Assembly: GCA_038231135.1 (NCBI GenBank) | Contig: JBBRLX010000005.1 | Coordinates: forward strand, 1 to 64,000 | DNA: 64,000 nt | Reading direction: 5' to 3' | DNA from: Candidatus Eiseniibacteriota bacterium | Lineage (GTDB): Bacteria; Eisenbacteria; RBG-16-71-46 | Notes under the pieces: model-generated | Told to the model about the DNA's origin: nothing | Seen by the model: only the letters and a program-made list of their open reading frames with translations | Database searches by the model: none | Translations under genes and position numbers: made by a program | Part shown: one piece after another, positions 29,014 to 56,083 of the stretch | Layout of the letters: each line of letters starts with the position of its first letter | Numbering within the stretch: position 1 is the stretch's first letter

Positions 29014-29548
<535 letters not shown>

Positions 29549-29583
29549 ACGCAATCGGGACCTGAGTCCCGCGGGGAGCGGCG

Positions 29584-30753
29584 ATGAACATCCGTAAAGT
29601 GCTCGAGAAGATGATCGCGTCGCGTGCCAGCGACCTGCACCTCAAGGCCGGCACCGCGCCGATCGTGCGCGTGGACGGCGTGCTCTACACGCTCGACGAT
29701 CCGCCGCCTGCCGCCCAGGAGTTGCGCGACGTGTGCAACCAGCTCCTGAACGACGAGCAGCGCCTGTATTTCTCGACCCACAACGAGATCGACTTCGCGT
29801 TCGGCGTGTCCGGACTCGCGCGCTTTCGCGCCAACATTTTCATGCAGCGCAGCACCCCCGCGCTGGCGCTGCGCCACGTGCCGGTCGAGGTCCCGACGAT
29901 CGAGGAGCTCGTGCTGCCCGGCGTGGTGCGCGACCTGGCGTTCTCGCCCCGCGGCCTGCTGCTGGTCACCGGCCGGACCGGGTCCGGCAAGTCGACCACG
30001 CTTGCCTCGATGGTCGACGCGATCAACGCGACCACGACGCGCAACATCATCACGGTCGAGGATCCGATCGAGTTCCTCCACCGCGACAATCTGTCGTTCA
30101 TCCACCAGCGCGAGCTGGGGCTGGACACGCGCTCGTTCCATGACGGCCTCAAGTACGTGCTGCGGCAGGATCCCGACATCATCCTGGTCGGTGAGATCCG
30201 TGATCTCGAGACGATGCGGACCGCCCTGATGGCGGCCGACACCGGTCACCTCGTGATGTCCACGCTGCACACCACGGACGTCGTGCAGACGATCCAGCGC
30301 ATCGTGTCGTTCTACCCGCCGCATCAGCACGACGAGGTCCGGCTGTCGCTGGCCTCGAACCTGCGCGCCGTGATCTGCCAGCGGCTGGTGCCGCGGGCGG
30401 ACGGCCAGGGCCGCGTGCCCGCGGTCGAGGTGATGATCAACACGCCGACGATCAAGGACCTCATCCTGAGCCAGGAAAAGACCTCGATGATCCACCAGGC
30501 GCTCGGCGAGGGCTTTACGCAGTATCATACGCAGACGTTTGACCAGTCGGTGCTGGGCCTGCTGCGCGACGGTCTCATCACCGAGGACGAGGCGCTCAAG
30601 AACTGCAACAACCCGAACGAACTGAGTCTCAAGCTGAAGGGCATCCTGGCCACCTCCGACCGCACGTGGGCCCCGATCGAATCGGGGTCGAACGCCACCG
30701 ATCTCAGTCCCCGCGCCGCCGCCGGCGGCGGGGGGCGATCCGACGAATTCTAG
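29584..30753 (+). CDS. PilT/PilU family type IV pilus retraction ATPase
   Basis: ASDLHL, RFRAN, GRTGSGKSTT, EDPIEF, LRQDPDIILVGEIRD, TGHLVMSTLHT, QTFDQ. Confidence 0.93.
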   Translation: MNIRKVLEKMIASRASDLHLKAGTAPIVRVDGVLYTLDDPPPAAQELRDVCNQLLNDEQRLYFSTHNEIDFAFGVSGLARFRANIFMQRSTPALALRHVPVEVPTIEELVLPGVVRDLAFSPRGLLLVTGRTGSGKSTTLASMVDAINATTTRNIITVEDPIEFLHRDNLSFIHQRELGLDTRSFHDGLKYVLRQDPDIILVGEIRDLETMRTALMAADTGHLVMSTLHTTDVVQTIQRIVSFYPPHQHDEVRLSLASNLRAVICQRLVPRADGQGRVPAVEVMINTPTIKDLILSQEKTSMIHQALGEGFTQYHTQTFDQSVLGLLRDGLITEDEALKNCNNPNELSLKLKGILATSDRTWAPIESGSNATDLSPRAAAGGGGRSDEF

Positions 30754-47137: not shown

Positions 47138-47419
47138 ATGTTCGTCGGCGTCGTGCGCATCGAGCTCCACATTCCGGGCGCCCGGTCCCTCAAGGACAAG
47201 CGCTCGGTGGTGCGCTCGCTCAAGGATCGTATCCGCCAGCGCGTGCAGGCCGCCGTGGCCGAGGTGGACCATCAGGACCTGTGGCAGCGGGCCGCACTCG
47301 GCGTCGCCGTGGTGTCGGGGGAGCGCGGGCAGGTCGATTCGATGCTGCAATCCGTCCGCCACATCGCCGACTCCGCGCCCGAGGCGCTGGTGATCGACTG
47401 GCAGGAGCAATTCCTATGA
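47138..47419 (+). CDS. DUF503 (YlxP) family protein
   Basis: SLKDKRSVV, AEVDHQDLWQRA; position after infB. Confidence 0.9.
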   Translation: MFVGVVRIELHIPGARSLKDKRSVVRSLKDRIRQRVQAAVAEVDHQDLWQRAALGVAVVSGERGQVDSMLQSVRHIADSAPEALVIDWQEQFL

Positions 47420-52471: not shown

Positions 52472-52497
52472 GGTTCGCAGCCTCAACGTGTTGGCGT

Positions 52498-52532
52498 GCA
52501 ACGTGGCGGGGCGACCCGCCACGTTGTGTTTT
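52498..52532 (+). terminator. Intrinsic terminator after pnp
   Basis: GCAACGTGGCGGG-GCGA-CCCGCCACGTTGT then GTTTT. Confidence 0.8.
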
Positions 52533-52630
52533 AGGCGGCACGGAAGGTGCGAAGCTCATCCAACAGTAGAGATGCAACCTCCTTCGGGAATCCGATCCCG
52601 CGCTGCGCCCCCGCCGTCATCCGAGGGGTC

Positions 52631-53908: not shown

Positions 53909-54008
53909 GTTTGCGCGGCCGGCACCAAACGCCGGGCCATTCGCGCTCGAGATCTGGCGCCGTTGGAAAAAACCAGCCCCCGCGAACTCTTTACAAGGGG
54001 GTACTTCC

Positions 54009-54452
54009 ATGTCCAGGCACTCGTCCCCGCATCCCAGCGACCAGGCCACATTGCGCAAACTCGTCGAGTTGTCCGCCCGGGAGCGCGCCCGCGTGGCCCG
54101 GCTGCTCGGCGAGATCGGTGAAGTCGAGGCTCGCGGGTTGTATCGATCGGAGGGCTACCCGTCGATGCTGGCCTATTGCGAGTCCCTGAACATGGACGAG
54201 CCCGAGGCCCACATTTGCGCCGCGCGGGTGGCGCGCGAATATCCGAGCGTGTTCGATGCGATCGCCGACGGACGACTGCACCTCGCCGCCGTGGGATTGC
54301 TCGCGCCATTTCTGACGGCGGAAAACGCGGTCGAGCTGTTCGCGGCGGCAACGCACAAGGGAGAATCGGAGATCGAGGCGTTGCTCACGGAGCGGTTCCC
54401 GGGTGCGACGTTCCCGCCGCAGCCCGTTTGGGATGACGACGCGAACAATTGA
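54009..54452 (+). CDS. DUF222-like N-terminal-domain-only paralogue of the downstream HNH protein (possibly truncated)
   Basis: Aligns by eye with the N-terminal domain of 54686..56083 (ARGLY...PSM..YC, AR, LLAP.LT..N..EL.AAA.HK...EIE). Confidence 0.65.
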   Translation: MSRHSSPHPSDQATLRKLVELSARERARVARLLGEIGEVEARGLYRSEGYPSMLAYCESLNMDEPEAHICAARVAREYPSVFDAIADGRLHLAAVGLLAPFLTAENAVELFAAATHKGESEIEALLTERFPGATFPPQPVWDDDANN

Positions 54453-54685
54453 GTTCGGGCCCTCGACGAATTGACTTGACGTCCAACAACGTGGGGTGGC
54501 CGGCGCCGTGTCGCTGCCCCTCAAACTTGGCGCTGCCGCGCCCAGGTCGTGCGCGACAGCGTCGATTGTCTTCGGATGGCTCCGATTCTCGTAACCCTTC
54601 TCTCCAAGCGTCCTCACGAGATCCACGAGCGCGAAATCAGGCGCCGTTAGAATTGAGCTGATGAGCCCCCGCTCACCCAATTCTC

Positions 54686-56083
54686 GTGAGCGACCCCATG
54701 ACCTGGTATGCGCTGTCTCATCTCGCCGACGGTGATATCGCTCGTGAATTGCCGGCCAAATTCGCCCGGGTCTCTCGAAACGATGCCGAGGCGCTCGCGT
54801 GGCTGGCCGAATTCGATGCGCGCCGGTTGTACCTGCCGGCGGCGCATCCCTCGATGCACTCCTATTGCGTGCACGAGATGCACATGGAGCCGGACCCGGC
54901 ATTCAAGCTCATCCGCGTGGCGCGGACGGCCTGGAAGTTCCCGGCCATCTTCCCGGAGCTCGCGGCACAGCACCTGAACCACAGCGCCGTGATCCTGCTG
55001 GCTCCAAGTCTCACGCCGAACAACGTCACCGAGTTGCTGGCGGCGGCCAAACACAAGACCAACGTCGAGATCGAACAGCTGCAGGCGCGGCAGTGCCCGC
55101 GACCCGGAGTGGGCAACCGGGAACTGGGCATTTCGGCGGATACCGATCAACAGGCCGTACGGCCTGTTAAGTTGACATCTGAGCAACAGGCCGCGGGGCA
55201 ACCGTCACTGGAATCGGGTAACGGCGTATTCGAGCAACAGGCCCCGCGGCCTGTTGAGACATCCGCACCGCGCCGCCAGCCCAACTCGCATGAATTGCGG
55301 CACGTGATCGGCGAGAGCAACTTCGACAAGCTGCAGTACGCCAAGTCCCTGGCGAGCCATCGTGCCACTGGGCGGGACGTCGAGGATCTCCTCGGGCAGG
55401 CGCTCGATCTGCTCATCCGAGAGTTCGAACGGCGCAAATTCGGAGCGACCAAGCGGCCGCGTAAGGAGCGTTCGAATTGTTCGAGCGCGAAGCCGCGGTA
55501 CGTTCCAAGACACGTGAAACGCGCCGTGTGGCAGCGGGATCACGGCCAATGCACGTTCACGAGCGAGACTGGCACGCGCTGCCCTTCGCGATCACTCCTG
55601 GAATTCGATCATATTGATCCGGTGGCGCGGGGCGGCGAAGCGACCGTGGCCGGCATGCGGCTACGATGCCGGGCGCACAATCAGTACACGGCGGAATGCG
55701 AGTTCGGCCTCGACTTCATGAAGCGCAAGCGCGAGTTAGCCCGGGAAACGGCGGCGCGAGCGCGTGCGCAGGCCGCCGAGGCAAGAGCCGCAGCCGAGGA
55801 GGAGAAGCGGAGGGCCTCGGCGGCCGCAAAGGAGGCGGCCATGAACCCGGAGCGGGATGTAACGCCCTGGCTCCGCAGGCTCGGGTTCCGCGCCGACGAG
55901 GTGAAGCGTGCGGCGGTGCACTGCGAGACCATCGCTGGCGCCTCGCTGGAGGAACGCGTACGCGTCGGGCTGGCCTTCCTTACGTCGAATCCGGCGAGCC
56001 GACCGCGATCTTCCCCATACCTCAGTACGCGAACCCCGCCTCGCCCATGCGTTTCAACGCCTCCTTCAGCCGGTCGTCGGTGA
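54686..56083 (+). CDS. DUF222-like / HNH endonuclease protein with RuvA-C-like tail
   Basis: RYVPRHVKRAVWQRD.GQC...RC...LEFDHIDPVARGG.....MRLRCRAHN; overlaps the convergent gene by 62 nt. Confidence 0.8.
   Translation: MSDPMTWYALSHLADGDIARELPAKFARVSRNDAEALAWLAEFDARRLYLPAAHPSMHSYCVHEMHMEPDPAFKLIRVARTAWKFPAIFPELAAQHLNHSAVILLAPSLTPNNVTELLAAAKHKTNVEIEQLQARQCPRPGVGNRELGISADTDQQAVRPVKLTSEQQAAGQPSLESGNGVFEQQAPRPVETSAPRRQPNSHELRHVIGESNFDKLQYAKSLASHRATGRDVEDLLGQALDLLIREFERRKFGATKRPRKERSNCSSAKPRYVPRHVKRAVWQRDHGQCTFTSETGTRCPSRSLLEFDHIDPVARGGEATVAGMRLRCRAHNQYTAECEFGLDFMKRKRELARETAARARAQAAEARAAAEEEKRRASAAAKEAAMNPERDVTPWLRRLGFRADEVKRAAVHCETIAGASLEERVRVGLAFLTSNPASRPRSSPYLSTRTPPRPCVSTPPSAGRR
55148..55256. 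repeat. Three in-frame palindromic repeats CAACAGGCC-N4-GGCCTGTT(G)
   Basis: Units start at 55148, 55184 (right arm degenerate) and 55235. Confidence 0.85.

Follow-up and report, generated by a model that had tools for sequence, protein, structure and literature searches.

A transposase-less HNH nuclease gene of Eisenbacteria that may copy itself by way of palindromes in its own coding sequence

We propose that a gene of a Candidatus Eiseniibacteriota bacterium is a 1.5-kb mobile unit that has no transposase and copies itself in cis. The gene lies between those for an M16 peptidase and an aminotransferase in the first 64,000 nucleotides of contig JBBRLX010000005.1 (assembly GCA_038231135.1), the stretch that was analyzed and that is called the window below. 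Its product would bind within the gene that encodes it, nick DNA, engage the RuvB motor of the host, and leave the copying to host recombination; we put the probability of this reading at roughly 0.45. Sequence comparison shows that the family is multicopy, has empty sites and defined boundaries, carries palindromes in its reading frame, couples four residues with four bases, and is replaced at orthologous loci. For nicking, RuvB recruitment, and the copying route taken jointly, the odds are a little below even.

The linker that follows the N-terminal domain of the long protein reads as an in-frame DNA palindrome, coupled to that domain, and not as the peptide repeat of the original prediction. 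Of 70 loci, 67 have a gene with an intact start. If a window that is palindromic over the 7 core pairs counts as perfect, the linkers of these 67 genes hold 86 perfect in-frame windows, whereas the two other frames give 1 and 2, and 3 turn up among the 21,940 in-frame windows outside the linker; at least one perfect linker palindrome is present in 49 of the 67 genes. A larger set holds 145 perfect units of 18 to 22 bp with 36 different half-sites, whereas synonymous recoding of the same peptides with family codon usage gave a mean of 0.125 perfect units and a maximum of 3 in 200 draws. Variants of the linker peptide (QLAPGQV, QQAPGPV, QPSPGTV, and QLVPEPV) match what the symmetry of the palindrome dictates. 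A role as an RNA hairpin was rejected for the sense strand, where there is no excess of G-T over A-C mismatches (18 versus 38), the opposite strand not being excluded.

The N-domain and the palindrome vary together. For the covariation analysis, 154 loci were reduced to 134 without duplicates, 122 with the N-domain, and 114 with a site, and the linker columns were left out. The protein columns that covary most strongly with site positions 5, 6, 7, and 10 in the 114 genes are 69, 73, 66, and 122, respectively. D66 is paired with G7 in 87 of 87 genes, and Q66 or E66 with T7 in 13 of 16; Q73 goes with T6 (38 of 54) and R73 with G6 (31 of 43), Y69 or F69 with T5 (67 of 76) and C69 with C5 (6 of 6), and K122 with C10 (69 of 70) and N122 with G10 (6 of 7). 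Residues 66, 69, and 73 stand at i, i+3, and i+7 on one face of a predicted helix (residues 65 to 80), and Arg-G, Lys-G, Gln-A, Asp-C, and aromatic-T are the usual pairings of direct readout. The window protein has N122 compared with R122 in its two closest paralogues, and its sites are changed at position 10.

Because the rules were chosen on the 114-gene set, held-out tests matter. Of 267 further proteins, 241 are <70% identical to the training set and 214 of these have a decodable heptad; all four rules hold in them (Fisher P of 3e-7 to 2e-18, uncorrected for kinship, with about 38 chance windows expected). In 73 held-out metagenome genes (from 80 loci, 76 of them under 75% identity), the same four columns rank first of 359. 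Independent pairs on a tree built without the code columns fall in the predicted direction at ratios of 5.6:0, 8.4:1, 7.6:1.3, 6.9:0, and 7:1 (median P of 0.03, 0.02, 0.07, 0.016, and 0.07). From these couplings, it is very probable that the long protein binds the palindromes in its own gene directly. One unpublished genome (G026) underlies the palindrome remnants at L028, a site beside parB, and L048 (1 of the 122 training genes), and the verdict is independent of all three; the site in question (G026:C21:6040-6061) is a family palindrome without mismatches, some 320 nt ahead of a parB helix-turn-helix match and near the parB start. In the accessible text of an earlier study, four residues switch palindrome preference in ParB and Noc (PMC7383237).

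The unit also has a sharp left end, marked by the motif TTGAC. Against a background of 0.03 per 110 nt, the motif lies 170 to 280 nt before the start codon in 97 of 111 leaders, and the same is true of 45 of 52 held-out leaders. The distance from TTGAC to a -10-like hexamer is 171 to 173 nt in 57 of 60 measurable leaders and in 31 of 32 held-out ones, and the spacer between them has a mean identity of 43%, with conservation of roughly 10-bp periodicity. Three paralogues in genome G006 (90 to 93% identity) share the unit from GCTTGAC at -222 to about +1268, and by eye neither this trio nor the filled/empty pairs show terminal repeats or a target duplication. At the right, the reading frame often ends in host DNA. 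One filled/empty comparison places the insertion immediately behind a stop codon and shows the convergent gene with a rewritten 3' end, and in the window the frame overlaps the convergent gene by 62 nt (56022-56083), as first described. In 71 leaders we found no RNAalifold consensus and no covarying helix on either strand (Rfam was not searched), and the mean folding z is only -0.9/-1.2. An apparent inverted repeat at the leader ends was discarded, as it reflects conservation and not covariation (373 of 1,000 permutations reach it). The leaders have no direct repeat at 149 nt that would enable excision to join TTGAC with the -10 box.

Copies of the family occur at no fewer than 12 loci in this genome (G000), counted by N-termini; three are intact and complete in the assembly, and the rest have frameshifts, deletions, or inversions or run off the end of a contig. 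Two broken copies lie at G000:C3 near 159000-159900 and C25 near 29100-29870: one has an internal inversion plus deletions, and the deletions of the other join N-domain to palindromes and palindromes to tail. The family profile matches 33 of 41 related genomes, with up to 34 matches each (a figure that should not be read as a copy number); among 1.84 billion representatives at 50% identity, 7,924 match at E≤1e-30. The gene is multicopy, not a single-copy gene in fixed synteny. The empty site expected between the M16 and aminotransferase genes is seen in relatives as well: among 29 M16 loci, the aminotransferase lies within 1.5 kb in 10, with a gap of ≤115 nt in 8 and other inserts in 2, and none of the 29 has a family match. 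In genome G031, an independent family copy occupies this junction in reverse orientation; in G028, with flanks at 95 to 97% identity, only about 185 nt lie there, with two solitary palindromes. The junction looks like an insertion hotspot. In one genome of the same genus (L303, G001:C157), a different insert between the two genes encodes a secreted-looking protein, whose C-terminal domain we take to be of the FlgD type. By a codon heuristic, the downstream neighbor of the family gene is convergent in 85 of 122 cases and the upstream neighbor co-directional in 69 of 104. Carriage by phages or plasmids was rejected, as 24 viral stretches gave two HNH-only matches and no whole element, and there was no plasmid match.

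Judged by divergence, the unit is swapped at orthologous loci independently of its flanks, and the history of the element is decoupled from that of the locus. In eight orthologous pairs, the synonymous divergence (pS) of the element is far below that of the host genes in two (0.005 versus 0.21 to 0.28 and 0.08 versus 0.15 to 0.19), far above it in three (0.58 versus 0.04; 0.46 versus 0.09 to 0.19, with one short frame at 0.30; and 0.49 versus 0.13 to 0.16), and similar in three. The pair L245/L244 has 7 mismatches in about 1,535 nt (99.5% identity), a tract that covers the unit plus about 100 nt on the left and 37 nt on the right, between flanks of about 91% identity. Paralogues are mosaics of blocks of 88 to 100% identity. 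Together with the copy number and the empty site, this decoupling supports the suggestion that the element is self-mobilizing. In a separate case, the copy L248 and its upstream flank are both 99% identical to their counterparts (G031:C63 and C239) between species that are otherwise 85 to 96% identical at other loci, which could reflect either a larger recent transfer or a binning artifact.

The AlphaFold model of the long protein (mean pLDDT, 80) comprises a helical N-domain (residues 1 to 135), a disordered linker (140 to 190), helices at 206 to 248, the HNH domain, a long helix (338 to 382), and a three-helix tail (389 to 430). The N-domain (pLDDT, 93) begins with a single long helix, and ranks 1 to 4 of 48,161 chains in the fold comparison are ParB/Spo0J/KorB DNA-binding domains (Z of 6.5 to 7.1, root mean square deviation of 3.0 to 6.5, 91 to 117 residues aligned). 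No match to ParBc, the N-terminal CTPase domain of ParB, was found in the window proteins or in 38 homologues. The original label "DUF222-like" did not hold: PF02720 matches neither window protein, none of the 38 homologues, and nothing in the genome, with a positive control in C. glutamicum, which rules out membership by profile. The relation to DUF222 is remote at best, the lead being the third ESM Atlas match of the N-domain (0.95), a cluster with DUF222 on 42% of its members that was found by a language model. The middle domain is likely a dimerization module and may resemble a ribbon-helix-helix.

An HNH fold is predicted at about residues 271 to 336, PHROG HNH matches of the long protein reach E 3e-7, and HNH nucleases top the Foldseek list, yet all at E>0.2; IscB matches cover the HNH domain only, far below the cutoff. 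Residues D304, H305, and N328 and the four Zn ligands are kept in all 118 aligned genes that reach them, and dN/dS is about 0.1 to 0.3 in the N and HNH domains of the three intact paralogues, the HNH domain giving about 0.14 to 0.26. By sequence, the catalytic residues are intact and under purifying selection. The tail is similar to domain III of RuvA (Pfam E 0.013), and the sole sequence matches in the PDB at E<10 are four RuvA chains, aligned over domain III. Four of the 38 homologues pass the Pfam cutoff for this domain, with many more below it; 95 of 118 genes have the tail, whose L-x-x-L-G motif is almost invariant. Compared directly with residues 155 to 206 of RuvA from the same genome, the tail profile scores 18.8 bits, and RuvA is absent from a filtered genome-wide scan. 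According to the accessible text of two reports, RuvA domain III loads and stimulates RuvB (PMC10272136, PMC9477746).

In the mechanism that we favor, the protein would bind, as a dimer, the palindromes within its own coding sequence, a private address that would direct the enzyme to its encoding gene. The HNH domain would nick nearby DNA, the RuvA-like tail would recruit the RuvB motor, and host recombination would overwrite resident relatives with the unit and, now and then, place a copy at a new intergenic site or break. A switch of address could let a lineage escape use by its decayed relatives. More tentatively, this may be a new class of mobile element, a self-addressed nuclease with a programmable four-residue code and a RuvA mimic that hijacks RuvB, which overwrites its relatives, has thousands of addresses, and carries the burden of a dedicated IS481 parasite; we regard such a class as possible rather than probable.

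Several observations weigh against this mechanism. Clean empty sites in G032 and G037 have no palindrome, which leaves the choice of new sites unexplained, and the near-identical tract shared across species rests on two metagenome bins. The L111/L122 orthologues are closer (75%) than L111 is to the one paralogue found in its draft genome (68%), so that replacement by a paralogue of the same genome was rejected there and no donor is identified, and locally fast mutation could lie behind the over-diverged pairs. The single independent-pair tests are modest (median P of 0.016 to 0.07 for the main rules), and a rule that linked residue 70 with position 9 held in the 214-protein set, failed in the metagenome set (P of 0.62), and was dropped. 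The ParB match is middling (Z of 6.5 to 7.1, Foldseek E>1, HHalign probability of 2.5%), and the RuvA-like tail is missing in 23 of 118 genes. Finally, the position of the site is flexible (linker, second linker, or upstream), which fits a role in repression or sequestration equally well.

The main rival is a self-repressed toxic nuclease of the addiction or abortive-defense kind. The palindrome would be an operator or a DNA "antidote" that parks the protein, loss or degradation of the site would free the nuclease, and spread would be passive, by horizontal transfer and recombination. Extra sites would then accumulate where they are tolerated, and six do lie within 41 to 201 nt upstream of TTGAC in 136 loci, with an own-type palindrome in the second linker (the coiled-coil region) of 10 of 140 relatives; orthogonal addresses would permit several copies to coexist. 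Likewise, this genome has six solitary palindromes, all perfect, at five places (G000:C2:166331, C4:109451, C5:160889, C39:15231, and C41:11509 and 11551), and they match resident specificities. They lie in intergenic DNA or at its edge, in settings that include the region upstream of leuS and a gap between convergent stops, and nothing else of the gene remains beside them. However, a toxic nuclease leaves unexplained the sharp left end, the fixed 172-nt spacing, the RuvA-like tail, and the transfer tract limited to the unit, and PADLOC matched none of seven proteins among eight, the eighth having weak HNH-type matches only. The defense role raised in the original prediction finds no support either, as the window proteins have no PADLOC match and the copies seen lie between housekeeping genes. 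We consider the toxic-nuclease explanation unlikely, short of dismissing it.

A less probable alternative is that the protein mainly disperses or processes palindromes, in the manner of REPtrons, and that the solitary palindromes are its products or are landing pads for later integration of the whole gene. In its favor, the solitary sites share 25 to 31 nt at 96 to 100% identity with extant linkers and nothing beyond, the M16 junction has palindromes in G028 and a gene in G031, and the long gene in the window begins where the linker of its short neighbor would lie. Solitary sites are few, however (31 scored sites in 4.1 Mb, most of them within family genes), the empty sites of G032 and G037 have no palindrome, and no HUH or RAYT domain was found in the window proteins or the 38 homologues.

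It is very unlikely that the unit is a nonautonomous passenger moved in trans by the transposase of an adjacent IS481 or by an IS91-type rolling-circle enzyme that uses the CTTG of the left end. A left end with CTTG and a ragged right end, as seen here, are typical of rolling-circle elements, and the left-end motif of an IS481-family element occurs 22 times in 10 of the 41 genomes, 20 of these 256 to 364 nt before a family gene and 17 of the 22 exactly 18 nt before TTGAC. In G020, however, five IS481 copies with a 408-amino-acid transposase are 100% identical and have their own 3-bp duplications (read from the alignment), whereas the nuclease genes beside them are 67 to 95% identical; IS481 therefore came later and was not the carrier. 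From this comparison, IS481 targets the left end of the element without carrying the gene. This genome, which is 93% complete, yielded no IS481 transposase, the IS91-type Y2_Tnp occurs in 10 of 41 genomes compared with 33 of 41 for the family, and the catalytic residues of the nuclease itself are invariant. On these grounds of late arrival, absence, and distribution, mobilization by IS481 or IS91 was rejected; this genome has three IS91-type transposase matches (C73, C81, and C96). In L203-L207 (G020:C1) and L181-L202, IS481 is always divergent and at a fixed distance upstream of TTGAC, with older end remnants on the far side. At G000:C28 near 47170-47290, an IS481 end and a TTGAC left end stand without a nuclease gene, and a host gene follows.

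The short open reading frame (ORF) upstream of the long one was correctly described as its paralogue, with N-termini 37% identical over 134 residues (E 8e-19), and of the two roles suggested for it, a decayed copy and a dominant-negative partner, only the first is borne out. The short protein lacks three residues in and before the recognition helix and has no palindrome, its remnant leader has no TTGAC end upstream, and it is closer to other paralogues (43 to 46%) than to its long neighbor (37%). The two genes differ with dN 0.60 and dS 0.81, a relaxed ratio. On these comparisons, it is most likely what remains of an earlier copy that occupied this junction. We give hardly any credence to the idea that the two genes form a module, with the short protein as a dominant-negative or antitoxin partner of the long one: the short ORF is open, lies next to the long one, and retains a long N-terminal helix, which could dimerize, but the tandem arrangement is found once among 104 loci that have 900 nt upstream (the other match, L165, looks like a split single gene), the short protein has no close homologue (41 matches, the best at 58%), its dN/dS is relaxed, and its leader is truncated.

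The remaining features of the locus (Table 1) agree with the first description of an accessory block with less GC-skewed codons between the M16 peptidase and the aminotransferase. Third-position GC content (GC3) is 0.76 in the short ORF and 0.82 in the long one, compared with 0.91 to 0.94 for pnp, M16, aminotransferase, truB, and IF2. The long frame measures 465 amino acids from GTG 54686, as originally given, and 461 from ATG 54698; the ATG aligns with paralogues and homologues and on that basis seems the best start. As had been stated, no transposase, integrase, or RuvC family was matched in Pfam, NCBIfam, and PHROGs searches. Contigs of two sequencing runs that may be its source tile the region with 0 differences, a check that is not independent; no empty-site or circle joint was seen in those contigs, which cannot exclude either. 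Named relatives of the long protein are mostly Candidatus Eisenbacteria, and look-alike clusters, which are leads only, are commonest in Myxococcota and Bdellovibrionota. Two observations concern other sequences. A hairpin followed by a T-run at window 52478-52535, between pnp and the M16 gene, is likely an ordinary terminator. An unrelated repeated palindrome with GACGTATC arms has four copies in this genome (G000:C2:193955, C29:26697, C34:1787, and C42:26855) and may be the end of another element.

TABLE 1 Features of the element and of the older copy beside it (window positions)
Feature	Position	Strand	Remark
Remnant promoter/leader of older copy, degenerate -10, GCCCCCG motif	53923..54008	+	Aligns to promoter region of long gene
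Short ORF, 147 aa	54009..54452	+	N-domain only; stop at expected linker start
Left-end motif, AT-rich + CTTGAC	54468..54481	+	TTGAC at 54476; paralogue identity begins here
Leader, length-conserved, sequence-variable spacer	54482..54697	+	
-10-like hexamer TAGAAT	54648-54653	+	172 nt from TTGAC
Small hairpin before ATG	54670-54692	+	
Long ORF, 461 aa	54698..56083	+	Sole protein of element
N-domain, aa 1-135	54698..55102	+	Predicted ParB/KorB-like helix-turn-helix; includes code residue N122
Recognition helix, aa 65-80	54890-54937	+	Code residues D66, F69, R73
Own-site palindrome 1, 20 bp, perfect	55149..55168		In linker
Degenerate third palindrome unit	~55181-55199		
Own-site palindrome 2, 22 bp	55235..55256		9-bp perfect arms; in linker
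Two-helix middle domain, ~aa 200-248	55295..55441	+	Strand-helix-helix pattern in family consensus
HNH nuclease domain	55490..55705	+	D304/H305/N328; Zn ligands C285, C295, C324, H327
Long helix/coiled coil, aa 338-382	55709..55843	+	
RuvA-domain-III-like three-helix tail, aa 387-430	55856..55987	+	
Ragged right end, frame continuing into convergent host gene	55988..56083	+	Copy homology fades within ~10-30 nt

The unit resembles several known systems in part. One parallel is with the free-standing HNH homing endonucleases, such as I-HmuI and the phage mob genes. These too are single selfish genes that combine a DNA-binding domain with an HNH domain and spread by host recombination with co-conversion of short flanks. 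However, a homing enzyme recognizes the empty allele and not itself, whereas the recognition site here would lie inside the gene, and the element is chromosomal, has many loci per genome, and was not found whole in the viral contigs and plasmids examined. Of the hallmarks of homing, the active site is kept by sequence in 118 of 118 genes, a site in the empty allele is lacking in two alleles (one other holds solitary sites), and transfer limited to the element and its short flanks has one clear case in eight orthologous pairs. ParB, Noc, and KorB, with their parS and NBS sites, give the best, though middling, fold match and share a palindromic site and few residues that switch specificity (here seen as covariation only), but the family has no CTPase-domain match, an 18- to 22-bp site in its own gene, a fused nuclease, and 36 half-sites. 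The lambdoid O initiator differs in starting phage replication at direct-repeat iterons with an AT-rich region and in having no nuclease.

REPtrons pair a RAYT enzyme (TnpA-REP) with REP palindromes. Like them, the family ties a single enzyme gene to lineage-specific short palindromes that are also found alone between genes; unlike them, it has an HNH and not an HUH enzyme, its palindromes lie mainly inside the ORF and number tens rather than hundreds per genome, and flanking sites occur at a minority of its loci. It differs from insertion sequences of the DDE, HUH, serine, and IS110 kinds in lacking a transposase domain, terminal repeats, and target duplication, and from RNA-guided HNH enzymes of the IscB/HEARO type in that the leaders searched have no conserved structured RNA. 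The REP13E12/DUF222 (PF02720)-HNH repeats of Actinobacteria are likewise HNH genes that occur in several chromosomal copies, have a helical N-domain, and lack a transposase, but the PF02720 match is not found here and the language-model lead stands alone. Such genes are listed as repetitive elements in the accessible part of PMC10589994. Neither there, nor in the accessible part of PMC7466680, nor elsewhere in the open-access library searched did we find a description of the own-site code of this family or of the predicted spread by self-recognition and RuvB recruitment. The present analysis derived the residue-level code with its held-out tests, the fixed leader spacing, the targeting by IS481, and the replacement tracts.

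The family is very large, yet it has no curated model and is annotated as "hypothetical" or "McrA." Since the cognate site comes with each gene, any sequence yields protein and target at once, and the family amounts to a collection, assembled by nature, of thousands of helix-turn-helix domains that are matched to their DNA sites and joined to a compact nuclease. It also makes directly testable a long-standing question, namely, how HNH repeats without a transposase, such as REP13E12, multiply.

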